Assembly: GCA_002716355.1 (NCBI GenBank)
Contig: PBAU01000005.1
Location: 50,425 to 82,424, forward strand
Direction: 5' to 3'
DNA: 32,000 bases
DNA from: a bacterium
GTDB lineage: Bacteria; UBP7; UBA6624
The notes below the pieces were generated by a model that had not been told where the DNA came from, did not search any database, and worked only from the letters and a program-made list of their open reading frames with translations. This document shows positions 1,114-31,433 of the stretch, piece by piece. Position numbers and translations under genes: made by a program. Every line of letters begins with the position of its first letter. The first letter of the stretch is position 1.

Positions 1114-1140
1114 AACAGGTTTTAAGAAAAGATCGTATTG

Positions 1141-1998: not shown

Positions 1999-2003
1999 AA
2001 TTA

Positions 2004-8454: not shown

Positions 8455-8497
8455 ATCAAAATCACCCTTTAAAGGTTTTCCGCCTTTGACTTCAATC

Positions 8498-11196
<2,699 letters not shown>

Positions 11197-11197
<1 letters not shown>

Positions 11198-12717: not shown

Positions 12718-12725
12718 ATTTCCTC

Positions 12726-13277
12726 CTAATTACTTGCGAGTGATTGTTTAATTTTCTTCAATGCACTTTGAACACTCGCGTCAACCATGTATCTTCCCAT
12801 CCTCAACTTGAATCCCCCAATCAAACCCTTAACAGTTTTTTGTTTCAAAATAACTTTGCAGCCAAGTTTTTTTCCAAGATCTTTTTCAAAATTTGCTAAT
12901 AATTTATTTGAAATTTCTTGACCTAACTCCAAAACACCTCTTTTAATGCCTTGATGGTCATCAACCAATTCCTCATAATATTCAGCTATCTGACTGAAAT
13001 AATCAATTTTTCCATTTTTAACAATTATGTTTAAAAACAAATAAAAATCTTTGTCGGTCTTAAGATCCTTACAAATCGAATCTAAAATACCTTGCTTCTC
13101 CTTAGAAGAAACTGAAGGATGTTGAAAAACCTTCATCAGATCAGGTTCGTCTATTAACAAAGCTGAAAATGAATTAAACCACTCTTTTGATTCAGTTAAC
13201 CCTTTTTCAGAATCAGACCAAATTCTCCAAGCGCCTTTAGCATAAGCGGATCCGATAGACAGACCTTCAAGTCTCAA
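12726..13277 (-). CDS. atpH: F1 ATP synthase delta (OSCP) subunit
   Basis: Lies between atpF and atpA. The C-terminus [25 protein letters not shown] matches the OSCP consensus (liGG..v..gd...D.Sv...L). Confidence 0.75.
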
Positions 13278-13764
13278 GAGAGCTACTAACCTCCTCCATT
13301 AACTTTTCAATCAACTTCTCATCTTCTTTATCCAACTTTGAAGTTAAAAACCTTTCACTTACACCAACAATTAAATCAGCAGCGTCTTTCTTGATTTCCC
13401 TTCTAACTCTCTCTCTCATGTCATCAATTTCTTTCTGCATTTTCTTTTTCGTTTCCTCAGATGCAAGTTCAGCTTTTTCTGTCATTTCCGCAACAATAGC
13501 CTCACCTTTACTGATCGCTTCAGAAATCTTTTGACTAACCTCTATCTCAAGATTAGACATTTTTTTGTCATAATCTTCTTTCAAAGATTCCATGTCTGCA
13601 CGATTTTTCTCGGCTAAATCTACATCATGCTTGATCTTTGTTTTTCTTTCTTCAAGAATTTTAGAGATGGGCGAAGCTAAAAATTTAACAAACGCCCACC
13701 AAACTAGACCAAAAGCAGCAGCTTCTACAAGAAGCTGCCCTAATTTGGGCGTGATTAATTCCAT
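13267..13764 (-). CDS. atpF: Fo ATP synthase b subunit
   Basis: Lies between atpE and atpH. It has a single N-terminal TM helix (LLVEAAAFGLVWWAFVKFL) followed by a long charged coiled-coil. Confidence 0.75.
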   Translation of the reverse strand: MELITPKLGQLLVEAAAFGLVWWAFVKFLASPISKILEERKTKIKHDVDLAEKNRADMESLKEDYDKKMSNLEIEVSQKISEAISKGEAIVAEMTEKAELASEETKKKMQKEIDDMRERVRREIKKDAADLIVGVSERFLTSKLDKEDEKLIEKLMEEVSSSLET

Positions 13765-13768
13765 TGTC

Positions 13769-14011
13769 TTAAGACAATTTACCCATTAGCATTATGGCCA
13801 AAAGAAGACCAAAAATACCTAGAGCCTCAGGGAAAGCCAAAGCAATAATTAACTTTCCTCCAATTGAATCAGAAACCTCAGGCTGTCTAGCCATTCCGTC
13901 CCAAGCAGCTGAAATAGCCTTACCTTGACTTATCGCAGCAGCAGCTGCTGGTATAGCAAAAGCAAAAGCAATAGCCATAAAATCAATATTTACACTGTCA
14001 CCAAAAATCAT
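13769..14011 (-). CDS. atpE: Fo ATP synthase c subunit
   Basis: An 80-aa helical hairpin with an ARQPE loop and the ion-binding Glu in LAFPEALGIFGL. Confidence 0.87.
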   Translation of the reverse strand: MIFGDSVNIDFMAIAFAFAIPAAAAAISQGKAISAAWDGMARQPEVSDSIGGKLIIALAFPEALGIFGLLLAIMLMGKLS

Positions 14012-14026
14012 AATTAACCTCCTAAA

Positions 14027-15022
14027 TTAATGTTTATGATCATGTTCTTCATCATGATGATGAGAACAAAAGCCTGATATATAAACCGATATCAGGGCTG
14101 TAAAAACTATTGCCTGTATAACAGAAGCAAGAATATGCAACAAGAGAACAGGCAATTGTAAAGGTAGTGGGATCCAAATCTTTACAGCTATATCTGCAAG
14201 TAAAACAACAAAAACGGCAAGAACAACATCTCCACCATATATGTTTCCAAACAATCTCAGTGCAAGGGATATCATTCTTGCAAACTGAGCCACTATTTCC
14301 AATGGGAGCAACAAAATAGCACCTATAACCTTAGCTAAACTATCTCCAGGCTCAGGCTCTCCCATCCAATGATCAATAATATGTTTTAAACCAGATTCTT
14401 TAAGTCCAATTACCAAACTTGCAATTATGCCAACAACACCAAAAGCCAATGTTGTATTTATATTTGCTGTTGGGGAATGAAATCCTGGGATAATACCCCA
14501 TAAATTCAAAGAAAGTATAAAAGTGAAATATGCTCCAAGCAAGCCAAAATATTTTGTAGCAACATATTCACCACCAAAACTTGCAAAGAAATTCCTCAGA
14601 CCATCAACCCAGATTTCAGCAAAAGCCTGTGCCTTCCCTGGTAAAAACTCAATCTTTCTAGTTCCCTTTTTGAACAAAGCAATCAAAATACCACTGACAA
14701 TAAACGTATTAAAAGCCATGGTCATACTTATCTCACCCATTGGATCTGAACCAGGGCCAGAACATTTCCAAAAAGCTGGCATCCATGGCTGCTCTTCCAC
14801 ATAAGTGTGAACAGTTCCCCCTTTTGGGCCAATACCTTTCCAGTTAAAAATATTTAGCAATTCATATTCTGGATGAGCGCATGCGCTATGATGATGGTCG
14901 CCGTGGTGGTCGTCGCCGTGGTGGTCGTCACCGTGGTGGTCGTCGCCGTGGTGGTCGTCGCCGTGGTGGTCGTCGCCGTGGTGGTGATCTTGATCTTCGG
15001 GTTTAAATTCAAAAATAGTCAT
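14027..15022 (-). CDS. atpB: Fo ATP synthase a subunit with His-rich N- and C-terminal extensions
   Basis: Contains ISLALRLFGNIYGG (essential Arg helix), LLHILASVIQAIVFTALISVY and multiple TM helices. At 331 aa it is about 70-100 aa longer than typical subunit a proteins. Confidence 0.9.
   Translation of the reverse strand: MTIFEFKPEDQDHHHGDDHHGDDHHGDDHHGDDHHGDDHHGDHHHSACAHPEYELLNIFNWKGIGPKGGTVHTYVEEQPWMPAFWKCSGPGSDPMGEISMTMAFNTFIVSGILIALFKKGTRKIEFLPGKAQAFAEIWVDGLRNFFASFGGEYVATKYFGLLGAYFTFILSLNLWGIIPGFHSPTANINTTLAFGVVGIIASLVIGLKESGLKHIIDHWMGEPEPGDSLAKVIGAILLLPLEIVAQFARMISLALRLFGNIYGGDVVLAVFVVLLADIAVKIWIPLPLQLPVLLLHILASVIQAIVFTALISVYISGFCSHHHDEEHDHKH
14891..14990. repeat. 15-nt tandem repeat, with 5 full units at 14906-14980 plus degenerate flanks, inside the atpB 5' region
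   Basis: The unit gtggtcgtcgccgtg recurs head-to-tail, with one g->a variant at 14930. On the minus strand it encodes (HHGDD)n. It is a conspicuous GC-rich island in AT-rich DNA. Confidence 0.92.
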
Positions 15023-15095
15023 AAAAACAATCGGATTAAAAACTTATATATCTAAGTTGAAAATCATAAATCGATATATTAAAAAATTAACTAAA

Positions 15096-15413
15096 TTAAT
15101 TCGTTTTTTTAGACTTTTTTACCATTTTCACCAATCCAAAAATAGAACCAATGATAAAAAAAAGAAAAGAGTCCTTTTGAATAATTAAATTTTTATAAAA
15201 AATCATCAAAAAAGATGCAAGAAGAAAATGCAAAAATAATATTGTTCTTAAAAGCTTTTGATTGATATTTTTGATATTATTTTTAACAAAAAAACTTATA
15301 GGCACCCATGAATAAAAAATCAAAAAACCCAATAAGCCAGAAAATATTTTTGGCCTGTAGAAGTCGAATAATGAATCTTCATTGAGGATTCCAAACAAAA
15401 AAAGACTTTCCAT
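15096..15413 (-). CDS. Small polytopic membrane protein, AtpI-like by position
   Basis: A 105-aa protein with 3-4 hydrophobic segments, located immediately upstream of atpB where atpI usually lies. I recognised no diagnostic motif. Confidence 0.45.
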   Translation of the reverse strand: MESLFLFGILNEDSLFDFYRPKIFSGLLGFLIFYSWVPISFFVKNNIKNINQKLLRTILFLHFLLASFLMIFYKNLIIQKDSFLFFIIGSIFGLVKMVKKSKKTN

Positions 15414-15416
15414 GAA

Positions 15417-15644
15417 TCAAGAATTCAATCTTTTATGTACTTTTAAAACTAACCTGCATGCTGCTCCTAATCCAATCAAAAAACCAATCAAAGTTCCCAA
15501 AGGCTCAGAATCATTATTCTTATCGTACATTTGACCAAAATACAATCCAATTCCAACAGCAACTGCGATTGACCAACCAAGGCTTGAATCTTCAATTACT
15601 TGTGAATACTTACCAGATTTTCTAATTACTGATCTCTCCACCAA
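15417..15644 (-). CDS. AtpZ/ATPase_gene1-like small membrane protein
   Basis: A 75-aa protein with two TM helices. The pattern SSLGWSIAVAVGIGLYFGQMYDK...PLGTLIGFLIGLGAACRLV resembles the putative F0F1-ATPase subunit family found upstream of atp operons. Confidence 0.55.
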   Translation of the reverse strand: MVERSVIRKSGKYSQVIEDSSLGWSIAVAVGIGLYFGQMYDKNNDSEPLGTLIGFLIGLGAACRLVLKVHKRLNS

Positions 15645-16570
15645 TTAAGCAAATCCTCTAGAGTTTGATCTAAAGATATTTTTGGTTCCCAAGATGTTTG
15701 ATTTTTAAATTTACTACAATCTCCAAGCAACAAAGGCACATCACTTGGCCTATCTAAATCCGGGTCTTTTATCACCTCAGGTTTAATGGAGGACAAATCA
15801 ATCAACTTTTCCAACAATGTAGAAATAGAAATTGCAGTTCCAGTACATATGTTGTAAACTTCGCCTGGCTTACCTTTTTCAACAGATACTTTATATGCGG
15901 AAACCACATCTCTTACATCTGTAAAATCTCTTTCAGCATCAAGGTTCCCAACCTTTATAACAGCTGGAGCTCCTCTTTCGATATTTACGATTTGTCGTGC
16001 AAATGCACTGGCAACAAATTCCTCACCTCGTCTCGGTCCAGTATGGTTAAAAGCTCTTGTTCTGATAATTTTCATACCATAAGATTGATAATACTGATAA
16101 CCTAGAAAATCTTGAGCAACCTTACTTACAGCATAAGGAGAAAGTGGTCTTAAAGGGTTATCTTCTTTTATGGGAGTTTCATTTGGGTGAACAAGGCCAT
16201 ACTCTTCTGAAGAACATGCAATCTGTATAGTTGGAGAAAGTGATAAGTCACGAACAGCTTCGAAAAGATTAACCTGTCCGGTAATATTGGTGTTAATAGT
16301 GTCTGCAGGTGCTCTCCAAGAGGTTGGAACAAATGATTGAGCAGCAAGATGAAAGATCCAGTCTGGCTTAGCTTCCCTTAAGATTGTTCTCAAGCTTGTT
16401 GAATCTTGCAAATCTCCTTCAACAAGATTGATTGAATCCTGAATTGAATTTAAATGATGCAAGGGAGACCTTCGTCTTATGAGTCCAAAAACTTCAACTT
16501 GCTCATTTAGCAAAAACTCTGCTAGATGACTCCCTGCAAAACCACTAATACCTGTTATTAAAGCCTTCAT
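15626..16570 (-). CDS. Extended SDR of the GDP-mannose 4,6-dehydratase / GDP-4-keto-6-deoxymannose reductase (Rmd-like) family
   Basis: Contains ITGISGFAGSHL (Rossmann), YAVSKVAQD (YxxxK), AFNHTGPRRGEEFV and GNLDAERDFTDVRDVV, which are typical of the GMD/Rmd clade. Confidence 0.7.
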   Translation of the reverse strand: MKALITGISGFAGSHLAEFLLNEQVEVFGLIRRRSPLHHLNSIQDSINLVEGDLQDSTSLRTILREAKPDWIFHLAAQSFVPTSWRAPADTINTNITGQVNLFEAVRDLSLSPTIQIACSSEEYGLVHPNETPIKEDNPLRPLSPYAVSKVAQDFLGYQYYQSYGMKIIRTRAFNHTGPRRGEEFVASAFARQIVNIERGAPAVIKVGNLDAERDFTDVRDVVSAYKVSVEKGKPGEVYNICTGTAISISTLLEKLIDLSSIKPEVIKDPDLDRPSDVPLLLGDCSKFKNQTSWEPKISLDQTLEDLLNWWRDQ

Positions 16571-17844
16571 TATCTAAATCTTACTCCTATATTCTTAAAT
16601 TTCAAATCCTTATGATCTGAAGCAATAGCAATTAGTCTATTGTATTTTGATGTTCTTTCCCCTCTTGCAGGTGCACCTGTTTTAATGAATCGAGAACCTG
16701 TTCCAACTGCAAGATCTGCAATAAAATCATCTTCAGTTTCACCAGACCTATGGCTTACTGACCAGTCCCAACCTGCCAATCTAACTTTTTTTATCGCATC
16801 AATAGTTTCAGTAACTGTACCAACTTGATTCAATTTAACCAACAAAGTGTTGCATAGATTATTCTCTATAGCATGGTTGATTTTTTTTACCTGTGTTACA
16901 AGTAAATCATCTCCAACAATATTAATTTTTTTTCCTAATATCTCATTCAACAGCAACCATGCTTCATCGTGTGATTCATCCATTCCATCCTCTATTGAAA
17001 CTATAGGATACCTGGAAGTCCAATCAGCATAAATATCGACCAAATCCTGAAAAGCAACTGATGAACCCTCCCATTCATAATATTTGTCTTTAAACAATTC
17101 TGAACTTGCAACATCTAAAGCCAAGAATACATTCTCACCAAGACTATATCTTGAATTAGAAATTGATTCATCGAGCAAATCCAATGCTGCTAAATTGCTT
17201 TTTAAATCAGGAGCAAAACCACCTTCATCACCTAGTGACGTTGACATTTGCTTATTATTTATTGTAGATTTTAATTCATGGTATATTTCAACACCTGCTC
17301 TAAGGGAATTCAAGAAATCTCCAGCTAGCCAAGGAACAATCATAAATTCCTGAACATCTAAATTATTATTTGCATGAGCTCCACCATTCAAAACATTCAT
17401 AGTCGGTATAGGTAAAGATGATTTGGATTCACTTAAACAGGATATCCACTGAAAGAGCTCTTGGTTTTCAATTACAGCGCCAGCTCTACAGATTGCCATA
17501 GACAATGGTAATAAACAATTAGCGCCAAGTTTTGATTTTTGAGCTGTACCATCCAATTGAAGAAGAATTTCGTCTACTCTGCCCTGCTCTCTGGGATCAA
17601 TATTTAAGATTTCAGGAATAATATTGTTGTTAAGATCATTTAAAACATCATCTACACCTTTTCCGCACCAAAAAGAACCTCCGTCCCTACGCTCTAAGGC
17701 TTCATGCGCTCCTGTAGATGCTCCAGAAGGAGCATTAGACCCAACAACAATCCCATTATTCAATTTCAGATCCACCCGCACAGAAGGAAAGCCCCTGCTG
17801 TCTAAAATCAATCTTGCTTTATAGTTTATTACTTTGTTGACCAT
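16570..17844 (-). CDS. eno: Enolase
   Basis: Contains ILDSRGFPSV, SGASTGAHEA, NVLNGGAHA, GDEGGFAP, IVGDDL, LVKLNQVGT and SHRSGETED. Confidence 0.95.
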   Translation of the reverse strand: MVNKVINYKARLILDSRGFPSVRVDLKLNNGIVVGSNAPSGASTGAHEALERRDGGSFWCGKGVDDVLNDLNNNIIPEILNIDPREQGRVDEILLQLDGTAQKSKLGANCLLPLSMAICRAGAVIENQELFQWISCLSESKSSLPIPTMNVLNGGAHANNNLDVQEFMIVPWLAGDFLNSLRAGVEIYHELKSTINNKQMSTSLGDEGGFAPDLKSNLAALDLLDESISNSRYSLGENVFLALDVASSELFKDKYYEWEGSSVAFQDLVDIYADWTSRYPIVSIEDGMDESHDEAWLLLNEILGKKINIVGDDLLVTQVKKINHAIENNLCNTLLVKLNQVGTVTETIDAIKKVRLAGWDWSVSHRSGETEDDFIADLAVGTGSRFIKTGAPARGERTSKYNRLIAIASDHKDLKFKNIGVRFR

Positions 17845-18473
17845 TTTATTTTTACACCTCTTGAGATTGCCTCAATTGCTTTTTCTTTGTATATAGGATT
17901 TGATGATTTATGTTGTATTAAGGCACTTCGACAATATTGATATGCATAAGTTTCTGGAATCTTTTCAGGAGAAGAAACTTTGGTTCCTTTTGCCCATTCA
18001 CCCCACATAAAATCAAGAACTTCTTTATTGTTGTCGCACCATCTTTCAATATCAAAATCAGTTACACCAAGGTAAAGATCCATAATATCTTCGTAAGTGA
18101 TTTTTCTCTGAAAGTGAATCACAATATCTGGCCAAGATAAATTATTTCTATTTAAAAAAGAAACCAACTCACCATTATCTTCAAAATTCAATCCGGCCCA
18201 ATTAATAGCTGCTGATTCGGAAGCGCTGTAATTGGTTTGAATGTTTCTAAAAAAAGCTTCCCTGAGAGCAAGGTTTTCTAAAAGAAAATATTCAACAAGA
18301 CTTTGAAATTCCTGATCACTAGCATTATTTTCTTTTAAAAGGATAAAATCTGGCCGCCTGGAAAGTTCTGATTGAGTAAAAGATTGATCATTAATGCTGA
18401 ATAAATAATCACTTTCCTTGTATGCACAATTAGAAAACAATAGACAAAATGCTATCAGTTTGTAAATCTTCAA
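17829..18473 (-). CDS. Lipoprotein of unknown function, with a weak SurA-N/PpiD-like chaperone flavour
   Basis: TTG start. The signal peptide has a lipobox-like LLFSNC. FSINDQSFTQSELSRR and LLENLALREA loosely resemble the N-terminal domain of SurA-type chaperones. No PPIase motif was seen. Confidence 0.45.
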   Translation of the reverse strand: MKIYKLIAFCLLFSNCAYKESDYLFSINDQSFTQSELSRRPDFILLKENNASDQEFQSLVEYFLLENLALREAFFRNIQTNYSASESAAINWAGLNFEDNGELVSFLNRNNLSWPDIVIHFQRKITYEDIMDLYLGVTDFDIERWCDNNKEVLDFMWGEWAKGTKVSSPEKIPETYAYQYCRSALIQHKSSNPIYKEKAIEAISRGVKIKWSTK

Positions 18474-18488
18474 AATAAGATTTCTTGT

Positions 18489-19652
18489 TTAAACTGTACC
18501 TGGCAACGCTTCAACTGGCCTATCTTCAGGACTCATTAAAAATTCCTCAACCTCTCCAGACCTCAACACCACAAAGCCTAAAGTGTCTTGAGGGTGGCTG
18601 TCACGAATCAAACCAGCTAACTCTAAAGGAGTTGACACAATCTCTTCACTTGTATTTTCCTCACCATTGTAAAGTCGCCTTACTCTTGTCATTCCAAGTA
18701 TTATGTCACCTCTTGATAGACCTTGTCTTGAAGCAGGGGAGTTAGGGTCAACATCCTGGACCATGACTCCTGATTTTCCTAAATACTCTTCAGGGATATT
18801 TGCATAAATTGCTAATGTATCATCCAAAGGCCTCAAACCAAGTCCAACCCAAGGATGAAAAACCTCTTCACCCTGCATCATTTTGTATACAGATTCCCAA
18901 ACAATATTCGATGGTGTTGCAAAATTCAAATCCAAAACACTTGTTGATAGGTATTGAGGTGTACCTTGATTCTCTTGAACCGAAAAAGACATCAAGCCTA
19001 TTATTTTTCCTGTTAAGTCTATTAAAGGTCCACCTCTATTGAAAGTAAAATTATGAGCATCAGTCTGAATCATATTGGGCATCAGGTAACCGTTAGGTAA
19101 AAAATAATCTCTCAAAGCTGAGACAATGCCTCTTGTTGCTGCTTGCTGATTTGGCAAGGGCCTTCCAACGGCTATAACAGTTTGACCTTGTGTCAATTTA
19201 TCTGAATCAGCAAAAGAGGCAGCTTCAAATAAGGTATCTGGATTGTCAATCTTCAACAAAGCAACATCATTAAACTTATCAGAACCAACCAAAGATGCAG
19301 TGTATCTTTTATTTGCAACAATCACATTAATCCTTAATGCATCTTCCATGTTTTTAGCTGTAGTAACAACAAATCCATCTGGAGAAATAACAACACCAGG
19401 AAAACCATTGATCCCCACAGTCCTAGTAAAAGTTCCAGACATACTGATTCCATACCTGTTTTCAACAACCTCTATTGAAGCTAATGATGGATCAATAACC
19501 TCAAGAGCTTTAACGGTTGGTAATTGCGAAGTGTCTAAATCAAAAGTGGGAACCTCTTTTGCAAAAAGAGAACCTGCAAAAGAAAAAAACAGAACAAAAA
19601 GAACTAAGAGAATTGTAGTTTTATCATTTTTAGAGAAATTTATTTTTTTCAT
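18489..19652 (-). CDS. HtrA/DegP-family paralogue with a degenerate catalytic triad (Lys-Asp-Arg) and a C-terminal PDZ-like domain; predicted pseudoprotease
   Basis: Has a signal peptide. It aligns to the DegP core: GFVVTTAK100NM (versus TNxHV), ND129VALLKI and FNR206GGPLIDLTGKIIG (versus GNSGGPL). PDZ-like region: GVMVQDVDPNSPASRQGLSRGDIIL. Confidence 0.85.
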   Translation of the reverse strand: MKKINFSKNDKTTILLVLFVLFFSFAGSLFAKEVPTFDLDTSQLPTVKALEVIDPSLASIEVVENRYGISMSGTFTRTVGINGFPGVVISPDGFVVTTAKNMEDALRINVIVANKRYTASLVGSDKFNDVALLKIDNPDTLFEAASFADSDKLTQGQTVIAVGRPLPNQQAATRGIVSALRDYFLPNGYLMPNMIQTDAHNFTFNRGGPLIDLTGKIIGLMSFSVQENQGTPQYLSTSVLDLNFATPSNIVWESVYKMMQGEEVFHPWVGLGLRPLDDTLAIYANIPEEYLGKSGVMVQDVDPNSPASRQGLSRGDIILGMTRVRRLYNGEENTSEEIVSTPLELAGLIRDSHPQDTLGFVVLRSGEVEEFLMSPEDRPVEALPGTV

Positions 19653-20914
19653 AAAGTTCCCCCTGCAAATTGGCCTTCACCTGGCTGTTCACCTAAAACA
19701 ACAGGAACATTGAAAACCTGTCCATTTCTTTCAACTGAAAGAATCACTTTAATATTCTTATCTAAACTGCGAATCCAAAACCTTGCCTCAAAAGCATCCT
19801 TTGGCATTTTCATTTCGCTTTTTGTGATTTTGCCATCATCATTCATGTCCCAGGCAATTTCAAGAATTTTGTCTCCCTGACGGAGCCCTGCTTTGTAAGA
19901 AGGACTTTCTGGATAAACATCAAAAACCTCAAAAGGTGTCTTAACTTGGTTTCTAGCTTGTCTAGCAAATGTGTCTGAAGCCCTGTCCCAAGCTTCTCTT
20001 CCTCCAAATGCACCCATGCCACCGCCTAAAGGGTTCCTTCCCTGTATGCCAATTTCATCAGACCACTCAAGAGTCATCCTGTCTATAAACACATAAAGAC
20101 CTAACCATGGGTATACAACCCGACCATGATCAATCGTGTCAAGCAAGGTTTTTTTTGCATCATTGGAGACTATAGCCATATTTTGACCTTCAAGCATAGA
20201 AGATCCTGCAAAATTAACACCTACCTGAAAACCATTCTCATCAAATAAAGGCCCCCCTGAGTTACCACCATTGATAGTTGCATCAGTATCAAAAGTATGT
20301 GAAAGCTCTGTACCGTAATCCCAAACAGTTGATGTACCACCTATTGCTCCATTTCCACCCAACATACGATTAACCAATTGTGGAGAAAGAACTCTATCTC
20401 TAACCGAACCAGCTGTTACTGTGTTTTTAAGCAAAAAATCTTTGTACATTGTGAAATTAGAACTATCTCCAGGGTTTCCTATTGCATAAACCTGCTCCCC
20501 TGCAACCACTTCATCAGAATCCCCAAATTTCACATAAGGAAAGACCTTACCCTCTTCTCCTGGCTCAGGAACAATCTGAAGAATAGCTATATCAATCTTG
20601 CAATTGTTAAACAAAAGTTTTGCATCCTCTACAGAGCCATCATTCAACCTTATAAAAGCCCATCTTTGTTTACCCCAGCCCATAACGTGACAATTTGTAA
20701 CAATATGACCTTCAGGAGTAACAATTGAACCTGAACCTCCGCCTAAGACGAAACCGGATTTATCTCCAGCGTAATCGCCGCCACCAGCTGTAACAGTTAC
20801 AGTTGACTGAACACTTGTGTTGACATTTTCAACCCACTTGGGATCGTCCTCGCCAAAAACAAATGCAAAAAATGCAACTGCGAACAAAACAAACAAACTA
20901 TTCTTAAAATTCAT
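19649..20914 (-). CDS. HtrA/DegP-family serine protease with an intact His-Asp-Ser triad and a PDZ domain carrying an EF-hand-like loop
   Basis: Has a signal peptide. Contains GHIVTNCH76V, ID108IAILQI, INGGNS219GGPLFDENG and the PDZ-like region YPESPSYKAGLRQGDKILEI. GAGG lies 9 nt upstream of the ATG. Confidence 0.87.
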   Translation of the reverse strand: MNFKNSLFVLFAVAFFAFVFGEDDPKWVENVNTSVQSTVTVTAGGGDYAGDKSGFVLGGGSGSIVTPEGHIVTNCHVMGWGKQRWAFIRLNDGSVEDAKLLFNNCKIDIAILQIVPEPGEEGKVFPYVKFGDSDEVVAGEQVYAIGNPGDSSNFTMYKDFLLKNTVTAGSVRDRVLSPQLVNRMLGGNGAIGGTSTVWDYGTELSHTFDTDATINGGNSGGPLFDENGFQVGVNFAGSSMLEGQNMAIVSNDAKKTLLDTIDHGRVVYPWLGLYVFIDRMTLEWSDEIGIQGRNPLGGGMGAFGGREAWDRASDTFARQARNQVKTPFEVFDVYPESPSYKAGLRQGDKILEIAWDMNDDGKITKSEMKMPKDAFEARFWIRSLDKNIKVILSVERNGQVFNVPVVLGEQPGEGQFAGGTL

Positions 20915-20926
20915 AACATAACCTCT

Positions 20927-21970
20927 TTAAAAAAATTTCTTTTCGTCAAAATCTATAATTCGTCTGACGACCTTAAAATCAAAATCTAAGAAAGTGCCGT
21001 TTCTGTAGATAGTAACAGTATGCCCTTTCATAGAAAAATTATCTTTATCTATCCAAGATCCAAAAATTGACCAAAAATCATCATGCACAGCTAAAGATTT
21101 ACCATCTAATGCCGTAATAATATCACCTGTCCTCAATCCAGTTCTCCAACCAGAACCAGTTTCAGCAAGCCCTGGTATATAAAGACCTTCGCCAAGATAA
21201 CCTGTTTTTAATCTAATTTCTTCAGGTATAGCCACAGGATCCAAACCCCAATCGACATGTAAATATCTTCCGCTTTCTATAAGTTCAGGCAGTACGATGT
21301 TGATGATATCTACAGGAAGAGCAAAGTTCAAAAATAAATTTTCACTATTTCTTTGCTTCAATGTGGGCATTCCAATCACCTCACCCCTTAAAGAAAGCAA
21401 GGCTCCCCCTTGTTGTCCCCCATTCAAAGCTGCATCAAATTGAAAAAATGTAGATAATCCACCACCCAGCTTGTTACCGGATAAAGTCGTAGCAGAAACA
21501 ATTCCTTTTGAAGTATTGCAACAAATACCTTCAGGGTTTGGAGACATAACCATTAAAGATTCACCAACAGAATAAGAATTTTGAGATAATTTCAAAGATG
21601 GAATATGAGGTCTCTTGATCTTAAGTTCCAAAACTGCCAAATCTGTAGGCACATCGTAACCAATTACTTTAGCCTCTACTGACCTCCCATCATTAAAAAG
21701 AATTCCAACATGTTTAGCGTCTCTTACATTTGAAGCTGTTGTCAATATGAGACCTTCTTCAGAGTCATAAACAAAACCGCTACCTATTTCAGTTTGGCTG
21801 ACATCACCATAAACCGAAGTAGACATTTTTGATTTAACAACTTTTATCCCTACGATACTATTTCTTGAATTTCTATAAATTTCCTCAAATCTACCTCTTT
21901 CAAAATCACCTAAATCAACATCTGAAAAAGATATAACGAATAAACAAAATAATATTTTTAAAATTTTCAT
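20927..21970 (-). CDS. HtrA/DegP-family paralogue with a degenerate catalytic triad (Ser-Asp-Gln) and a C-terminal PDZ-like domain; predicted pseudoprotease
   Basis: Has a signal peptide. Contains GSGFVYDSEEGLILTTAS80NV (His position), TD110LAVLEL and LNGGQQ187GGALLSLRGEVIG (Ser position). PDZ-like region: GWRTGLRTGDIITALDG. Its ATG forms an ATGA overlap with the BON gene stop. Confidence 0.82.
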   Translation of the reverse strand: MKILKILFCLFVISFSDVDLGDFERGRFEEIYRNSRNSIVGIKVVKSKMSTSVYGDVSQTEIGSGFVYDSEEGLILTTASNVRDAKHVGILFNDGRSVEAKVIGYDVPTDLAVLELKIKRPHIPSLKLSQNSYSVGESLMVMSPNPEGICCNTSKGIVSATTLSGNKLGGGLSTFFQFDAALNGGQQGGALLSLRGEVIGMPTLKQRNSENLFLNFALPVDIINIVLPELIESGRYLHVDWGLDPVAIPEEIRLKTGYLGEGLYIPGLAETGSGWRTGLRTGDIITALDGKSLAVHDDFWSIFGSWIDKDNFSMKGHTVTIYRNGTFLDFDFKVVRRIIDFDEKKFF

Positions 21971-22503
21971 AAAATTCTCCCTGGACCTCCTGGTGGAATT
22001 ATTGGTGGGATACCAGGATGGCCACCACCCGGCAAACCTGGATCAATAGGATCTCTTGAATCATCTTCCTCTTCAGCATGATCGTCTTCATCATCATCTA
22101 AGCCAAAACCAACAAACTCACATACCTCAGTAGCATCTCTTGGGCCAATAATTTCAAGCCTATTTACAACATCTCTAATTTCAGGGACTAAACTTGCCAA
22201 TCTTTCCGCTTCTCTCTTTTGTCCGATAGTTTCTATAGTTCCTTCAAGTATCGCAACTCTATTTTCAACTCGTGGTTTTATCACTCCATGATTACCGTTA
22301 TCCTTATCGTTAAGTTGTAATTGCAAGCAAACATCAGATGAAAGCTGTACCAACAAAGCGGCTTCAAGAGTTTTATCAATAGCTTCTTTTGTTTTTTCTA
22401 ATGGAGCAATTTTTGTTTGTTCTGCAACAGTTTTACCAACCCCCAAGTTCAACAAACAAGCTTGAAGAGAAAGCAAAGAAAAAATCAATATAAAAAACTT
22501 CAT
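21967..22503 (-). CDS. BON-domain lipoprotein with an acidic and Pro/Gly-rich C-terminal tail
   Basis: The likely start is the ATG at 22501-22503 (MKFFILIFSLLSLQAC, lipobox LQAC); the ORF track begins 3 codons earlier at a TTG (22512). BON-like core: VIKPRVENRVAILEGTIETIGQKREAERLASLVPEIRDVVNRLEI. The tail is DDDEDDHAEEEDDSRDPIDPGLPGGGHPGIPPIIPPGGPGRIL. Confidence 0.7.
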   Translation of the reverse strand: MKFFILIFSLLSLQACLLNLGVGKTVAEQTKIAPLEKTKEAIDKTLEAALLVQLSSDVCLQLQLNDKDNGNHGVIKPRVENRVAILEGTIETIGQKREAERLASLVPEIRDVVNRLEIIGPRDATEVCEFVGFGLDDDEDDHAEEEDDSRDPIDPGLPGGGHPGIPPIIPPGGPGRIL

Positions 22504-22563
22504 ATCCCGCAACCTAAAGATTATAAATTAATTCTTATATAAAATTCTATGAATTTTAGGATA

Positions 22564-23973
22564 TTAGCTAACCAATGAGTAATCTAAAACAATAGCTTGC
22601 TCATATGCAGGCATAATCATTTCTGTTGAAAAGCCATAAATAATACCTCCAACGAACAAAACCCACATAAATCTAGAAAAGATAATAGCGGTATATGCTT
22701 GAGAATTAGACAATCTGTAAAGTTGACCAAAACCTAAAACAGCAACTCTAAAAAGCATAAATGCAGCAAAACCAATCAGTGTGATCCCAATATACAAAGA
22801 AAAGCCTTGAGTGAAGAAAGCCAATAAGCAGCCTAAACCAAGAATACAGCTATAAGGGGTTAACAAGCTGGAAGCAAAAAATGTTGTACCAAACTTTAAA
22901 TCACTCTTAACAATTAATGAACCAAGATAGTTTGCTAACGCATTTACAAACCACAAACCAATAACTATAGCAGGAAACCATTGTATAAACATGTCTATAT
23001 GCTGTCTAAAGAAATTAATTAAATTTTGGGCCAAACCAGCTAATACGATGTAACCTTTTTCAGGATCATTTTCAACATTAGAAAAAACTGAAAACTTCAT
23101 TACCTCCAAGTATGCATAAACAACATTCCCATTAATCCAAGATAAAAGCATTCCTTTCAAGGATGAGGTGAATCCAACAAAAAGAAAAGAGGAGCATAAA
23201 ACCAGTGCAAAAGGATAAAAGAATGTTTCCCCTTTACCAAAATCTGCAAACAATTCTCCTGGCTCGTCAAAAGACCTCATAAAATCATCTACACCTTTTT
23301 TGCCTAAAGTTAAAAGCAAAACAATACCTATAAAAAAGAAAGTTAATGCTGTTGCAGATCTTTCTGTTAAGACAATAGGCCCTAAATTAAAAATTACAGG
23401 ATAAACAGAAACAAAAAACAGATTTTCAAATTCTTCAATCTGCTTTCCGTTCAATAAAGAAACATCTGTCATCCATAATCTATGCAAAGTGGAAGACTCT
23501 TGGCTATAGACAATCCACCAAGCTCCAGATTTTTGGTTTTGATCTGTGTAGTCAAGCCTGACTATATAGTGACTATCAGAATAAACTGTTTTTGAATCAA
23601 CCTCAAAGCCAAGGTTCTCCTGCAGGTGTCTCTCTAACAGTCTCGCTTTAAGAACTGTAGTGGAAACCTGCCCTGATGAAACACCTAGAGGTGTGGATCT
23701 TACATCTAAAACTTTTTGTGAACCAGAATTACAAATAAACCGATCACCAACTTCTTCAATCTTAAGCCAGCCATTTTTAAATTTTTTACCTGAAGAATAC
23801 TCTGTATCAGGAACAACAACTTCCCAAGAATCCTCCTGAGTGGAATTACACGTCCAAGATGAAGGTAAATTAAGTCTTATACCGGTTGACTCATCAACAG
23901 TTTTTGCATCCAATAAAAATGAAAAACTGGAAGAAGCAACAAGGCAAAAAAATATTATTATTTTTTTAAGCAT
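22564..23973 (-). CDS. Polytopic inner-membrane protein of unknown function, with an N-terminal ~190-aa exported domain and ~7-8 TM segments
   Basis: Has a signal/anchor MLKKIIIFFCLVASSSFSFLL, a soluble beta-rich region, and then hydrophobic helices from about residue 195 to the C-terminus. It is the first gene after the groEL terminator hairpin. Confidence 0.6.
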   Translation of the reverse strand: MLKKIIIFFCLVASSSFSFLLDAKTVDESTGIRLNLPSSWTCNSTQEDSWEVVVPDTEYSSGKKFKNGWLKIEEVGDRFICNSGSQKVLDVRSTPLGVSSGQVSTTVLKARLLERHLQENLGFEVDSKTVYSDSHYIVRLDYTDQNQKSGAWWIVYSQESSTLHRLWMTDVSLLNGKQIEEFENLFFVSVYPVIFNLGPIVLTERSATALTFFFIGIVLLLTLGKKGVDDFMRSFDEPGELFADFGKGETFFYPFALVLCSSFLFVGFTSSLKGMLLSWINGNVVYAYLEVMKFSVFSNVENDPEKGYIVLAGLAQNLINFFRQHIDMFIQWFPAIVIGLWFVNALANYLGSLIVKSDLKFGTTFFASSLLTPYSCILGLGCLLAFFTQGFSLYIGITLIGFAAFMLFRVAVLGFGQLYRLSNSQAYTAIIFSRFMWVLFVGGIIYGFSTEMIMPAYEQAIVLDYSLVS

Positions 23974-23998
23974 AGTTAGATTTTATTTTAAATAAGGC

Positions 23999-24020
23999 GG
24001 GGGTGAACAATTTCACCCCC
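23999..24020 (-). terminator. Probable intrinsic terminator downstream of groEL
   Basis: A perfect 9-bp GC-rich stem, gggggtgaa / ttcaccccc, with a 4-nt loop lies 12 nt after the groEL stop. On the transcribed strand it is followed by GCCTTATTTAAAATAAAA. It is the only strong GC hairpin I saw in an intergenic gap. Confidence 0.55.
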
Positions 24021-24031
24021 ATTTCCTTAAA

Positions 24032-25687
24032 TTAAAATCCGCCCATTCCAGGCATTCCTCCACCAGGAGGAGGTCCACCCATTGGTTGCTCTTTCTCTTC
24101 CGGAAGATCTGTAACCATAACTTCAGTAGTTAAAACCATTGATGCAATACTAGCAGCATTTCTCAAAGCGCTTCTTGTAACAACAAGAGGATCTATAACT
24201 CCAACTTTAAGCAAATCACAGTATTCTCCAGTTAATGCATTAAATCCATGTGAACCTTTTTGTTCTTGAACTTTTTCAACAACTACAGAACCTTCATAAC
24301 CAGCATTTTCAGCAACTCTTCTCATTGGTTCTGTTAAAGCATTCCTAACAACATTTATACCCCAGTTTATAGAAACATCCTCATCATTCAATTTTTTAAT
24401 TTTATCAACACATCTAAGCAAAGTGACACCACCACCAGGAACAACACCTTCTTCAACAGCGGCTCTTGTAGCTGATAAAGCATCTTCAAATCTATGTTTC
24501 TTTTCTTTCATTTCTACTTCTGTTGGGGCACCTACTTTTATTTCAGCAACACCACCAGCTAACTTTGCTAATCTTTCTTGAAGCTTTTCTCTTTCCCAGT
24601 CACTATCAGTGCCATCAATTTCAGATCTTATTTGCTCTATCCTCCCCAAAACTGCAGGAGAACCTGAGTTTGAGCTAACTATTGTTGTATTATTTTTATC
24701 AATTATGACCTTCTGGGCAACCCCCATTTGATCTACATCAACATTTTCAAGTTTCATTCCAAGATCTTTACTAATAAATTCACCACCGGTCAAAATAGCT
24801 ATGTCTTGCATCATTGCTTTTCTTCTGTCACCATAACCAGGAGCTTTAACCGCGCATACGTTTAAAGTGCCACGAAGCTTGTTTAAAACAAGTGTTGACA
24901 AAACATCATTTTCAACCTCTTCAGAAATAATCAAAAAAGGTCTACCGTCTTGAGCAACTTTTTCAAGTATTGGTAAAAATTCTTGTGCGTTGCTAATTTT
25001 TGATTCATATATAAGAATCAAAACACCCCTGTCATCACCACCTATCTCACATTTTTGCATTTCTTTATCGTTTGCAAAATAAGGACTCTGGAAACCTCTA
25101 TCAAACTGCATTCCTTCAACAAAATCAGGACCAGTAGTTAAACCTGTCTTAGATTCCTCAATCGTAATCACTCCATCATTTCCAACTTTTTCTATTGCTT
25201 CAGCTATCAATCTACCAATCTCTGAATCATTGTTTCCGGATATTGTTGCAACACGCTCAATATCCTGTCTACCTTTAATTGGTTTTGCTGTTTTTTGCAA
25301 ATTTTCAACAACAGCATCAACAGCAGATTGAATGCCTCTTTTTAAAAGCATTGGATTAGCTCCAGCAGCTACAGCTTTTAAGCCCTCTTGAACCATTTTT
25401 TCAGTCAGAATAATAGCAGTGGTTGTTCCATCTCCAGCAGCATCATTCGTTTTACTTGCTGCTTCTTTTGCAACCTGTGCTCCCATATTCTCAAAAGGAT
25501 CTGGAAGTTCTATTTCCTTTGCAATAGTTATTCCATCATTTGTAACAACAGGAGAGCCAAATTTTTTATCAAGAATAACATTTCTGCCTCTTGGACCAAG
25601 CGTTTCACCAACTGCCTTAGCAACTTTTTCAACGCCTCCTAAAAACTTTTCCCTTGCTTCAGTATTAAAAATCAATTGTTTTGCCAT
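24032..25687 (-). CDS. groEL: Chaperonin GroEL (Cpn60)
   Basis: Contains AKAVGETLGPRGRNV, AGDGTTTA, VAAVKAPGFGDRRK-like (CAVKAPGYGDRRK), GGVAEIKVGA and a C-terminal Gly/Met/Pro tail GGPPPGGGMPGMGGF. Confidence 0.97.
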   Translation of the reverse strand: MAKQLIFNTEAREKFLGGVEKVAKAVGETLGPRGRNVILDKKFGSPVVTNDGITIAKEIELPDPFENMGAQVAKEAASKTNDAAGDGTTTAIILTEKMVQEGLKAVAAGANPMLLKRGIQSAVDAVVENLQKTAKPIKGRQDIERVATISGNNDSEIGRLIAEAIEKVGNDGVITIEESKTGLTTGPDFVEGMQFDRGFQSPYFANDKEMQKCEIGGDDRGVLILIYESKISNAQEFLPILEKVAQDGRPFLIISEEVENDVLSTLVLNKLRGTLNVCAVKAPGYGDRRKAMMQDIAILTGGEFISKDLGMKLENVDVDQMGVAQKVIIDKNNTTIVSSNSGSPAVLGRIEQIRSEIDGTDSDWEREKLQERLAKLAGGVAEIKVGAPTEVEMKEKKHRFEDALSATRAAVEEGVVPGGGVTLLRCVDKIKKLNDEDVSINWGINVVRNALTEPMRRVAENAGYEGSVVVEKVQEQKGSHGFNALTGEYCDLLKVGVIDPLVVTRSALRNAASIASMVLTTEVMVTDLPEEKEQPMGGPPPGGGMPGMGGF

Positions 25688-25711
25688 AATATTAAACCTC
25701 TTTATTTATAT

Positions 25712-26011
25712 TTATTTTATTTGTGCAAGAATATCATCTTCTCTAAGAATTAAATATTCTTCTCCCTCATGCGACAGCTCGTTTCCTCCATATTTTGAAA
25801 AAACAACAGTATCACCAACTTTTAAATTCATTGGTTGAACAAGCATTTGTCCATTAAGGTTTGCTTCCTTTTTCCCAGGGCCAACAGCTACAACTGTACC
25901 CTTCTGTGGTCTTTCTTTTGCTGAATCAGCAATAACAATACCACTTGGACTAGAAGACTCAGCATCTAGCCTCTTTACTATTACACGATCGCCCAATGGC
26001 GCCAACTTCAT
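25712..26011 (-). CDS. groES: Co-chaperonin GroES (Cpn10)
   Basis: Contains [35 protein letters not shown] and [17 protein letters not shown] (reverse complement of 26021-26026) lies 9 nt upstream of the ATG. Confidence 0.95.
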
Positions 26012-26063
26012 TACTTAAAACCTCCTAAATAAATAAAATCAAACTGCTATTATAAATTAAAAA

Positions 26064-27608
26064 CTAATCCAAAGGACATGGCCTGATTGTTTCAATTGAT
26101 TCAAAAACATCAGAAGAAACATCATTTTTTGGCATGCCTTCTATCTCAAAACCACATTTTGTCAATTTTCCAGTGACCCATACAGGATCAAAATCACCAA
26201 CTCTATTCGTTGTCAATTTTTTTGTATAGCCAGTTTTTAAATGAGTTACGTATATTTCATGTCTCAAATATCTATCTTGAGCAGAATACACAACCCATTC
26301 TCCATCTGGAGACCAGTCGCCGCTATGGTCAACACCCACAGAATTCGACAATCTAACTGGAGCTATGGAACCTGTTGGCAGGTCATAAACAACAAGGGCT
26401 TCAGCTACAACTGATATCAATAATCCTCCATCCATCTTTCCAGATAGTCTGCTTTTACCTTTTGCAGATTCCAAAAACATACTGGGAACGGTGTAAACAT
26501 TGGCTTCAATCAAGATTTGACTTGAATCTGGTGACCATTTAAATGTATTTGCACCAAGCCACATGTAAGGATTTTCAGAATAAAAAACTTTTGAATCAGT
26601 CATGTCACCCCAAAAATCTCTTTCAACATCAAGCATGACAGTAATCATATCTCTTTCACCTTCTTCATTTAAAGCAACACTCATAAGATAAAGATAATTT
26701 CTGATACCAGGTCTATTTGCCATGTATGCAATCCATTTTCCATCAGGAGAAACAGCAGGTTTAATATTACTGTCTACCTCATCGGTAATTCTTTCTTCGC
26801 ATAAAGCTTCAGGGCTTAATGTGTTTCTCTGATCGTAAGGCTCCAAACTTTCCCAATTCTCAATATCTGAACCTTCAATATCCATAATGCAATCTAGATC
26901 GACTATAAATAAATCTCTATAAGCTTCTTGTGACCAAGTTTCCAAAACAGTATTTTCCTCATAAAGATTATGTTTTGGGAAATAATGACCAATTGGTGGA
27001 TAAACATCTTGCTCAAGTCTGTAAGACTCGTAAATCATATATTTTCCATCAGGCGTGAAAGAAGGAGAGTAATCACCCCAGTAATTTCTAGTCACGGCTG
27101 TTCTTTTTGAGCCATCAGGTTTTGTAAGAATGATTTCAGATTCCTGACCCATGTCAGTAACATACGTGATCCATTCACCATCAGGGCTCCATAGAGCTTG
27201 ACCATTAATGCTTGAATCTTTTGTTAAAACATTAGTGTCACCATTAACCAAATCTATAATGACAACATCCTCAGAAGTGCCATCACAGATACCTGGCGCA
27301 AAGATACCTTTATGTTTAGGGTTTTTTAAAGTTTCAGCACAGGTTTCATTAGTGGAAGCGCCCCAAGCATAATACATAAGATACCTTCCATTTGGTGAAA
27401 TCTGCGGAGAAGCATCCCTGATTCCGTTAAAGGTTAAACGATGTGGGGTTTCACCTTTCGTATCCATGATGTAAAGCTCATCACCACCATCTCTATTTGT
27501 TCTAAAGATAATCGATCCCTCTGGTATATCAAGAGCTTCAGATGAAGCAAAAACAGTATAAGGGCTAAAAAATAGTTGCAAGAAAAAAATTAAATTAAAA
27601 ATCATCAC
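26064..27608 (-). CDS. Secreted TolB-like PD40 (WD40-like) beta-propeller repeat protein
   Basis: Has a signal peptide. It carries repeated PD40 signatures: SPNGRYLMY, SPDGEWITY, TPDGKYMIY, SPDGKWIAY, SPDSSQILI and SPDGEWVVY. Confidence 0.8.
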   Translation of the reverse strand: MMIFNLIFFLQLFFSPYTVFASSEALDIPEGSIIFRTNRDGGDELYIMDTKGETPHRLTFNGIRDASPQISPNGRYLMYYAWGASTNETCAETLKNPKHKGIFAPGICDGTSEDVVIIDLVNGDTNVLTKDSSINGQALWSPDGEWITYVTDMGQESEIILTKPDGSKRTAVTRNYWGDYSPSFTPDGKYMIYESYRLEQDVYPPIGHYFPKHNLYEENTVLETWSQEAYRDLFIVDLDCIMDIEGSDIENWESLEPYDQRNTLSPEALCEERITDEVDSNIKPAVSPDGKWIAYMANRPGIRNYLYLMSVALNEEGERDMITVMLDVERDFWGDMTDSKVFYSENPYMWLGANTFKWSPDSSQILIEANVYTVPSMFLESAKGKSRLSGKMDGGLLISVVAEALVVYDLPTGSIAPVRLSNSVGVDHSGDWSPDGEWVVYSAQDRYLRHEIYVTHLKTGYTKKLTTNRVGDFDPVWVTGKLTKCGFEIEGMPKNDVSSDVFESIETIRPCPLD

Positions 27609-27609
27609 T

Positions 27610-27828
27610 TTACTCCACCGTCAAGGTAACCTGATTACCTTGTAAAGAAGGTTGCTCCACTCCATTTTTCGTAGGAGTTATCAATGGTTGAAAATCATAA
27701 GTAGAAGAGGTTGAACCCCCTCCACCACCACCTGCAGGTCCACCTGAAGGAGAATCAGAATCACCACCTCCACAGGAAACAAAAACCATACATAAAACAA
27801 AAATAAATAATTTAAAAAATTTTCTCAT
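27610..27828 (-). CDS. Small Gly/Ser-rich lipoprotein of unknown function
   Basis: The signal peptide ends in VFVSC, followed by GGGDSDSPSGGPAGGGGGGSTSS. It is tightly packed between the metzincin gene (3-nt gap) and the PD40 gene (1-nt gap). Confidence 0.5.
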   Translation of the reverse strand: MRKFFKLFIFVLCMVFVSCGGGDSDSPSGGPAGGGGGGSTSSTYDFQPLITPTKNGVEQPSLQGNQVTLTVE

Positions 27829-27831
27829 AAT

Positions 27832-30750: not shown

Positions 30751-31433
30751 TACTCTTCGCCCTCCTCAAAATCGATTCCCCGCAACAGTGAAAGCATATT
30801 TTTTTCCTGGACTAAAAAAGCATCCAAGGTTATAGGAGATCCATCTTGAGCAGTTTCTCCAAAATCAGCGTCAACTGCCATTGTGCCTATCTCCATAATT
30901 TCCAAAGGGCTATCAGTAACCTCTCTAGAAATAAAACCCTTGACAGGGTAAACGCCCTCAAAACCATAAACTCTTGCTACGCCATTATTGTCTGGAATGA
31001 CCCTATAAGCACCATTGCTAAAACCAACAACAGGAACAGCTATGTTTCTAGCATCTCTATTCCATAAATGCAATACATAAACTTCACCTGGGAAAAATTG
31101 AGGGTGACCAGATATCCTGGTTGTTAAACCATCAAAAACACCACCTGGATGATCAATCTCAATGTAAACATTATCCCCAACCTGCTGATATGTAGCAAAA
31201 TTTTCTATATTCTTCATCAAATCCTCTTGAACCTTGATTGTTACATATGTTCTTTTCCAGAATCTTTCAGAAGGATCTATGCGATATTCATAAGAAACAA
31301 CCTCACCTAAAACTGCAAAATCAGTCGCTCTAACTTGCTCTTCCAGGGAAAGATTGCTGAATGTATGAGTGTCTAACCTCAAAACACTTACCAAGAAAAC
31401 TAAACAAAAGATAAAATATTTTTTCATAACCAA
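30750..31433 (-). CDS. Secreted hypothetical protein, first gene of the metzincin cluster
   Basis: Has the signal peptide MVMKKYFIFCLVFLVSVL. Its stop overlaps the metzincin ATG by 1 nt. I recognised no named family (see findings for a speculative OB/TIMP-like pattern). Confidence 0.55.
   Translation of the reverse strand: MVMKKYFIFCLVFLVSVLRLDTHTFSNLSLEEQVRATDFAVLGEVVSYEYRIDPSERFWKRTYVTIKVQEDLMKNIENFATYQQVGDNVYIEIDHPGGVFDGLTTRISGHPQFFPGEVYVLHLWNRDARNIAVPVVGFSNGAYRVIPDNNGVARVYGFEGVYPVKGFISREVTDSPLEIMEIGTMAVDADFGETAQDGSPITLDAFLVQEKNMLSLLRGIDFEEGEE

Follow-up and report, generated by a model that had tools for sequence, protein, structure and literature searches.

The window analysed here, 32,000 nucleotides of the 202-kb contig PBAU01000005.1 (assembly GCA_002716355.1, positions 50,425 to 82,424) from a bacterium of the GTDB lineage UBP7; UBA6624, carries on its minus strand three adjacent genes of the HtrA family of periplasmic proteases, here designated A, B and C. 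A (20927-21970, 347 amino acids (aa)) and C (18489-19652, 387 aa) encode HtrA pseudoproteases, each with a protease domain and one PDZ domain. B (19649-20914, 421 aa), lying between them, encodes the only catalytically competent HtrA of the set and contains insertions in both its protease and its PDZ domain. Judged by comparison of their sequences, the three proteins are ancient and functional, do not duplicate one another and belong to one operon. We propose that they are the three subunit types of a dedicated periplasmic HtrA machine, a physical hetero-oligomer; the chance that this is so we put at about even. An initial annotation of the window, made from the DNA letters, had argued against three redundant proteases, and A, B and C were indeed clearly non-redundant. 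The coordinates and strand that it gave for the three open reading frames (ORFs) were right.

The triad columns were read from HMMER alignments to solved HtrA structures and from a MAFFT alignment that included five canonical DegQ-type proteins as references. The HMMER alignments to PDB entries matched Ser80 and Gln187 of A with the catalytic His and Ser, respectively, of a "peptidase Do" structure, and Lys100 and Arg206 of C with those of Helicobacter pylori HtrA. The motifs TNCHV and GGNSGGPL of B were intact. The MAFFT alignment with the five DegQ-type proteins gave the same catalytic columns for all three proteins. Asp110 of A and Asp129 of C are retained; the full triads are Ser80/Asp110/Gln187 (A), His76/Asp108/Ser219 (B) and Lys100/Asp129/Arg206 (C). 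Both methods thereby confirmed the triads previously assigned by eye (complete in B, Ser/Gln in A and Lys/Arg in C at the His/Ser positions), and neither placed a His at the His column or a Ser at the Ser column of A or C. The codons named for these positions were also correct on reading the sequence: TCA (21731-21733) and CAA (21410-21412) in A, and AAA (19353-19355) and AGA (19035-19037) in C. A and C, described as full length, were so in every lineage examined. By inspection, N-terminal hydrophobic signal-like segments occur in A, B and C of every lineage, in line with the signal peptides claimed, and the PDZ-like GL(S/R)xGDII segment reported for A and C is present in both.

The triplet is part of a cassette with the order membrane-protein gene (TM), BON-domain lipoprotein gene, A, B, C, lipoprotein gene (LP), enolase and usually pyruvate kinase. 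Gene C is carried by six GTDB species representatives of the window clade, and the full cassette was read in five loci (L004-L008). The window clade and the deeper lineages L001, L011 and L012 together are termed the window superclade; L014/L015 and L017/L018, at only 36-40% identity, are termed the outgroup. On the contigs fetched, the same cassette in the same order was found in the window clade, L001, L011, L012, L014/L015 and L017/L018, at 36-70% GC, and the dead/live/dead order of the HtrA genes recurs in at least six deep lineages. Gene junctions through BON-A-B-C measure −4 to +28 nt in six lineages. The ATGA overlap between B and C noted earlier is real, and the stop of the BON gene overlaps the start of A by ATGA in the same manner. 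Conserved synteny, suggested by the initial annotation as a check, was thus borne out, the A/B/C order and tight spacing being conserved across very deep divergence. The cassette is probably an ancient operon.

Homologues of C were found at 89-100% identity in marine metagenome-assembled genomes and in a second tier at 50-54%, followed by generic DegQ at ~32%; searches with A and B gave the same narrow pattern. When the C-family profile was run against 1.84 billion representative proteins, three clusters scored above 270 bits and were followed by generic HtrAs. A metagenome scan with the B-family profile gave one true family member and 79 generic HtrA loci, and 78 metagenomic HtrA loci obtained with this profile were examined as a negative control. 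Tandem HtrA genes or triads other than His-Asp-Ser were seen only in L020, the true member of the family, and in 0 of the 77 generic loci, indicating that HtrA loci in general do not share the tandem live/dead arrangement. The triplet is confined to a poorly sampled, uncultured marine lineage.

A further triplet was found in locus L019 (C-like protein P0406), where three tandem HtrA genes lie in a different neighbourhood, without a BON or TM gene. Their triads are, in order, S/S/E, H/D/S and Q/Q/F, again dead/live/dead, and family HMMs (hidden Markov models) place the three genes as A, B and C in that order. In bootstrapped neighbour-joining trees, the core B and C families were recovered at 98-100%, A including its L019 member at 90-94%, and C including L019 and P0402 at ~70%; there is a tendency for the two dead families to group as sisters (60-79%). 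P0402 (JGI 3300042731, on a 3.9-kb contig) is a dead C-like HtrA with the triad D/Q/L and the tail LGTI, and P0396 (L016) is another, with the triad D/N/R and the tail PLTI. Both contigs are too short to show A-like or B-like partners; on that of P0396 a long ORF lies directly 3′ of C.

Ratios of nonsynonymous to synonymous substitution (dN/dS) were calculated pairwise by the Nei-Gojobori method within the window clade. They were 0.02-0.10 for A, 0.02-0.07 for B and 0.03-0.07 for C, with A and C lower than the flanking genes TM (0.08-0.15) and LP (0.11-0.26). In deep comparisons, identity was 41-42% for A and 50-54% for C versus ~30% for TM or LP. The shared triads, dN/dS and deep identity together indicated that catalysis was lost long ago and that A and C have since been under strong purifying selection. 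The claim that neither is a decaying pseudogene therefore held in the dN/dS check that had been suggested for it, A and C (0.02-0.10) being equal to the active B.

The residues at the triad positions differed in how firmly they are fixed. Across the cassette lineages, A has Ser, Ala or Gln at the His position, Asp at the Asp position and an invariant Gln at the Ser position, and B has His, Asp and Ser in all lineages. C of the window superclade has Lys, Ser, Thr or Arg, then Asp (Asn once), then Arg; C of the outgroup (L014/L017) has Asp or Glu, then Asn, then Ile or Leu; the C-like P0396 has Asp, Asn and Arg. Conservation of the S/Q and K/R substitutions, which had also been put forward as a check, was therefore partial. 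In A the Gln is fixed across cassette lineages, but the His position drifts (S/A/Q). In C the Arg is fixed in one superclade and in P0396, but is replaced by Ile or Leu in L014 and L017, and the His position takes K/S/T/R/D/E. The Asp of C is itself changed to Asn in several lineages. Within ten columns on either side of the former Ser, 8 of 21 columns are invariant in A and 11 of 21 in C, versus 14% (A) and 17% (C) overall, and around the former His only 2 of 21 are invariant in each protein. The L1/oxyanion loop is the most conserved segment of both A ("…G-x-QGG-x-x-L") and C ("QTDA…FN-x-GGPL"). By this pattern of invariant columns, the dead A and C keep the scaffold of the cleft and not its chemistry. 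In the PDZ domains, the PW-x-G loop region is kept in B, C and outgroup A; A of the window superclade has only W-G left of it. All three proteins of the window clade have the GL-x-x-GD region.

Two cysteines were observed near the active site of B. Cys75 (20690-20692, minus strand) adjoins the catalytic His (TNCHV), and Cys105 (20600-20602, minus strand) is separated by two residues from the Asp that follows it (NCKID). Both cysteines are present throughout the window superclade, and the outgroup has Phe and Asp in their place. A possible role for the pair is a disulfide or redox switch at the active site.

All three proteins matched Pfam Trypsin_2 (E 1.5e-20 for A, 4e-24 for B and 4.9e-22 for C) and, weakly, Pfam PDZ. 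The alignments of C and A to solved HtrAs extend through PDZ1, and phmmer matches in PDB to DegP, DegQ and DegS reach E ~1e-29. The NCBIfam HtrA models (DegP/Q/S, HhoA, MamE/O) were matched by A, B and C, all far under the curated cut-offs. Against the DegP/DegQ "Do" subfamily (TIGR02037) the three proteins score 162, 125 and 138 bits (cut-off 416), and they carry one PDZ each where that subfamily has two. The DegS equivalog (TIGR02038 / NF008147) gave 71-114 bits (cut-off ~423), and the MamO and MamE models gave 24-96 bits (cut-off 800), with 24-60 bits for MamO NF040961 (cut-off 800). As every score fell below its cut-off, A, B and C were classed as divergent HtrA-family proteins of no named equivalog. 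Each has the chymotrypsin-fold Trypsin_2/S1C domain and at least one C-terminal PDZ of the HtrA/S1C family; the His-Asp-Ser triad is found in B only and is missing from A and C, indicating that A and C are HtrA homologues and not peptidases. An AlphaFold2 (AF2) model of C was obtained with a mean predicted local distance difference test score (pLDDT) of 86.9 and a predicted template-modelling score (pTM) of 0.79. A Foldseek search with this model returned HtrAs only; the top whole-chain matches were AlgW, MucD and DegS (target TM-score 0.79-0.85), and the nearest structures were single-PDZ HtrAs. Pairwise identity among A, B and C is only 21-28%, no closer than that of each to generic HtrAs, indicating that they are ancient paralogues.

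The extreme C-termini of B (AGGTL-COOH, 19652..19666, minus strand) and C (LPGTV-COOH, 18492..18506, minus strand) were found to be conserved. The B tail is AGGT[LI] in 11/11 cassette loci tabulated, and nearly every cassette lineage has PGT[VI] as the C tail, with LGTI in L011. Both are kept to the last residue, and the C-termini of A, TM, BON and LP are unconserved. Among 442 generic HtrAs, 30 had any hydrophobic last residue and seven ended in GT[LIV], all seven being B-family members. The PDZ domains of HtrAs bind free C-termini with a hydrophobic last residue, as is established for DegS and DegP, suggesting the B and C tails as candidate PDZ ligands within a complex. These tails are a newly recognised feature, absent from generic HtrAs, that could be PDZ ligands. 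In the AF2 monomer model of C, Thr386 of the tail takes part in a beta-bridge. The PDZ insertion of B contains a predicted EF-hand-type Ca2+-binding loop, DMNDDGKITKSEM (residues 356-368; 19811..19849, minus strand). PROSITE PS00018 matched exactly in B of 9/9 window-superclade genomes and in B alone among the cassette proteins; L014 and L017 lack the insertion.

In the machine that we propose, encoded in an ancient operon with the membrane protein, the BON lipoprotein and the small lipoprotein, B alone would supply the active sites. In A and C the HtrA fold, the PDZ domain and the scaffold that the L1/oxyanion loop gives the substrate cleft are all retained, and for that reason both proteins can probably still hold on to unfolded polypeptides or C-termini; for B they would serve in substrate capture, as holdases, or as allosteric sensors. 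The hetero-oligomer would be built on the usual HtrA trimer principle, and since an active protomer is controlled by the sensor loop and PDZ of its neighbour, a dead subunit could act as the gate of a live neighbour. B (…AGGTL) and C (…PGTV) may dock with their free tails into the PDZ grooves of partner subunits, and in the window superclade the EF-hand loop in the B PDZ may add control by Ca2+. With one third or fewer of the protomers catalytic, such a complex would be biased towards holding or single-site processing and away from processive degradation. Physical association, stoichiometry, tail-PDZ docking, Ca2+ regulation and substrates are all points that we infer. A much more specific version may be imagined, namely an obligate asymmetric heteromer (an A:B:C trimer or stacked trimers, for instance) with one type of active site, assembled or gated by GT[LIV] tails in PDZ domains, switched by Ca2+ through the EF-hand in the superclade, and tethered to the envelope by the BON lipoprotein and the Yip1-like membrane protein; in this full form it seems rather unlikely.

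A hetero-oligomer is the most economical explanation for the co-retention of three genes, their fixed order, their translational coupling and their conserved tails. The hetero-oligomer of fixed stoichiometry that the initial annotation had suggested gains indirect support, short of proof, from the GT[LIV] tails of B and C, the PDZ binding loops and the oxyanion-loop scaffolds, all of them conserved. Several observations weigh against it. Operon membership rests on spacing and on consensus promoter and terminator matches. With 21-28% identity among A, B and C, a shared trimer interface cannot be assumed; the C-terminus of A is unconserved, so that tail docking cannot be symmetrical; and the Arg of C is not universal, which leaves no one chemical role for that residue family-wide. 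In L019, the placement of B is weak (31-48% bootstrap in the neighbour-joining trees) and the tails differ (…SPITY and …GKVSI). The three proteins might instead be co-expressed but separate, with B a homo-oligomeric envelope protease and A and C forming homo-oligomers of their own, as dead chaperones or holdases or as PflC-like scaffolds, so that A and C would have only regulon and pathway in common with B. The conservation and selection data fit this equally well, and the distance of A, B and C from one another, as great as that from generic HtrAs, fits divergent, self-specific interfaces. Protease-dead variants of HtrA find wide use as chaperone-only or substrate-trap forms, and a pure scaffold derived from HtrA is known in PflC (PMC12222027). 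However, the strict order, the tight junctions and overlaps and the co-retention in every sampled lineage exceed what a shared regulon usually preserves, the free hydrophobic C-termini of B and C and the PDZ on every subunit suggest docking between subunits, and A and C, unlike PflC, keep the cleft and oxyanion-loop scaffold. Separate homo-oligomers are the main rival explanation, and one we think doubtful.

The tails, PDZ domains and tight coupling would be explained equally well if A and C were built-in negative regulators, poisoning or capping B by co-assembly or with tails in its PDZ or cleft; B would then be latent, and active only once stress had led to their displacement or degradation. 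HtrAs are normally restrained by PDZ and loop interactions, as established for DegS and DegP. Such a role leaves unexplained both the need for two different dead paralogues and the peak of conservation at the substrate-cleft scaffolds, and we consider it improbable. It is very improbable that A and C are still enzymes using non-canonical catalytic residues. Variant triads do occur in some relatives of serine proteases, MamO has Thr at the nucleophile position, and a His is invariant in the "TDAH" of window-superclade C, six residues ahead of the Arg; but this His is Thr in L014 and L017, the protease domains offer no invariant His, Ser, Thr or Cys candidate in deep alignments of A or C, the residues found at the nucleophile position (Gln, Arg, Ile, Leu and Phe) are none of them nucleophilic, and the His position drifts freely. 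Decay of A and C into pseudogenes, or an assembly artefact, which the loss of the catalytic His and Ser might have suggested, was rejected as having next to no probability. Intact full-length ORFs are present in >12 independent assemblies from different studies, dN/dS is 0.02-0.10, and family-specific motifs are conserved down to 27-40% identity.

HtrAs are textbook homo-oligomeric, allosterically switched protease-chaperones, in which the need for catalysis and inter-protomer signalling have mostly been studied with engineered dead subunits. In DegS and AlgW, a hydrophobic C-terminus bound to the PDZ activates the protease allosterically across the trimer. These proteins have the same architecture of protease domain and one PDZ as A, B and C and were the best whole-chain matches to the C model. 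They are homotrimers with all subunits active, are anchored by an N-terminal transmembrane helix and sense the C-termini of outer-membrane proteins, whereas the A/B/C set has a single live subunit type among three, and its candidate PDZ ligands are its own tails. HtrA paralogues have reportedly been found in hetero-complexes in Arabidopsis (Deg5-Deg8) and Synechocystis (HhoA/HhoB/HtrA). To our knowledge, the partners in these complexes retain their catalytic triads, and none is a fixed operon set of one live and two dead proteins.

The closest characterised bacterial case is MamE/MamO (LimE/LimO), an active HtrA with a degenerate one, alike in principle only. MamO, which is derived from HtrA and has a degenerate active site, promotes MamE-dependent proteolysis, and such pseudoproteases arose repeatedly after duplication and were retained (PMC4794232). 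MamO acts through a TauE transporter domain fused at its C-terminus and through a di-His metal site on its surface, and it belongs to a magnetosome island, none of which is shared by the A/B/C system: no TauE domain and no invariant His was found in the protease domains of A or C, and the neighbourhood is housekeeping. In contrast to MamE/MamO, two distinct dead paralogues flank the live one, in a context of groESL, eno and ATP synthase and with BON and lipoprotein partners. A retained dead HtrA domain beside an active one, as in the A/B/C principle, is also seen in plant DEG7 and yeast Nma111, and the degenerate protease domain of DEG7 mediates trimerisation (PMC3194040). The dead domain of DEG7 is part of the same eukaryotic polypeptide as the active one, whereas A and C are separate secreted proteins with their own PDZ and coupled genes; A, B and C are the products of three ORFs with starts, stops and signal peptides of their own, and not one DEG7/Nma111-type polypeptide. 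PflC of the Campylobacter jejuni flagellar motor is a repurposed periplasmic protein derived from HtrA and lacking the triad (PMC12222027). Its active-site region is atrophied, with the His loop lost, and it belongs to a structural motor lattice with no operon pairing with an active HtrA. In A and C, by contrast, the cleft scaffold is kept, with the L1/oxyanion-loop region the most conserved, an active paralogue is adjacent, and no flagellar genes were found in any locus. The A/B/C set belongs to none of MamE/MamO, DEG7, Deg5/Deg8 and PflC. The earlier statement that no bacterial system of this type had been characterised was right in that none with this architecture was found, but precedents for the principle do exist (MamO/MamE, PflC, DEG7 and Deg5/Deg8). 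No bacterial operon of one live HtrA between two distinct, anciently dead paralogues was found in the literature, the coverage of which was incomplete, so that this is absence of evidence only.

The A/B/C set is a natural counterpart of the engineered dead-subunit experiment, with one live and two different dead proteins, ancient and strongly selected. If the three co-assemble, they would show how subunits that are pseudoenzymes come to do the sensing and holding of a protease complex, would offer a defined heteromer, amenable to recombinant work, in which allostery between protomers can be dissected, and would clearly extend the bacterial pseudoprotease repertoire beyond MamO and PflC. Were the obligate, gated heteromer to exist, it would represent a new regulatory logic for HtrAs, in which dedicated dead sensor or holdase subunits replace homo-oligomeric allostery, and one long since fixed throughout an uncultured lineage. 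The cassette itself marks a putative lineage-defining envelope quality-control module of an uncultured marine group.

Signal-like segments on A, B and C and lipoboxes on the BON protein, LP and several TM proteins pointed to an envelope system. TM, the first gene of the cassette (22564..23973, minus strand), encodes a C-terminal polytopic membrane domain preceded by an N-terminal domain of ~190 aa that is presumably periplasmic. Its place in the cassette is unchanged among the window clade, L001, L011, L012, L014 and L017, at ~20-31% identity. The window copy matched no Pfam family and nothing in PDB; the L014 orthologue gave a weak match to Pfam Yip1 (E 1.3e-4), and a lipobox is present in TM of L001, L011 and L012. 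The BON-domain lipoprotein (21967..22512, minus strand; Pfam BON E 3.7e-6, lipobox LQAC) lies directly upstream of A in six of six cassette lineages and is 55-70% identical within the window superclade. It ends in a Pro/Gly-rich low-complexity tail, …PGLPGGGHPGIPPIIPPGGPGRIL (21967-22050, minus strand); Pro/Gly-rich BON C-termini are also found in L001, L011 and L012 and not in the outgroup.

LP (17829..18473, minus strand; lipobox FSNC) is the last cassette gene before enolase, a position kept in all cassette lineages. It is possibly a SurA/PrsA-like protein, to judge from its L014 orthologue, which scored 26.2 bits against Pfam SurA_N_3, under the cut-off of 27.2 bits, a sub-threshold match seen in the outgroup only. 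The best PDB match of the LP family profile was PrsA, at a non-significant E of 0.12, and a single-sequence AF2 model of LP had a pLDDT of 38 and was unusable. Between C and LP, the outgroup has an extra gene of ~845 aa that overlaps both (L014:11350-13896 and L017:10134-12665); this extra outgroup protein (X848, 848 aa) gave no family match. At the same place the high-GC L011 (5869-6963) and L012 (6720-7811) have an AI-2E family transporter gene, which overlaps the end of C by 23 nt.

Directly after the groEL stop and just upstream of the TM start, a terminator-like hairpin and sigma-70-like −35/−10 elements were found by consensus matching (23980..24021, minus strand). The hairpin (24021-23998) has a 10-bp stem with 6 GC pairs and a weak T-tail, and the promoter-like hexamers lie at 24007-23980. 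This site is the probable start of the cassette transcription unit, and the position of the hairpin after groEL suggests a cassette transcript separate from that of groEL. A heat-shock link to groESL through the CIRCE (controlling inverted repeat of chaperone expression) element was rejected, as no match with up to 3 mismatches was found. The 32-kb window contained no Rfam match and no rRNA. Core housekeeping genes, all on the minus strand, flank the cassette (window 1-17844 and 24032-31433). They include genes for a sugar nucleotidyltransferase, ftsW/rodA, tpiA, pgk, gap, a cofD-like and a murA-like gene, ATP synthase genes, a gene for an NAD-dependent epimerase/dehydratase, eno, groEL, and genes for a PD40/TolB-like beta-propeller protein and a 972-aa PKD-domain protein. 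GC skew is negative throughout the window.

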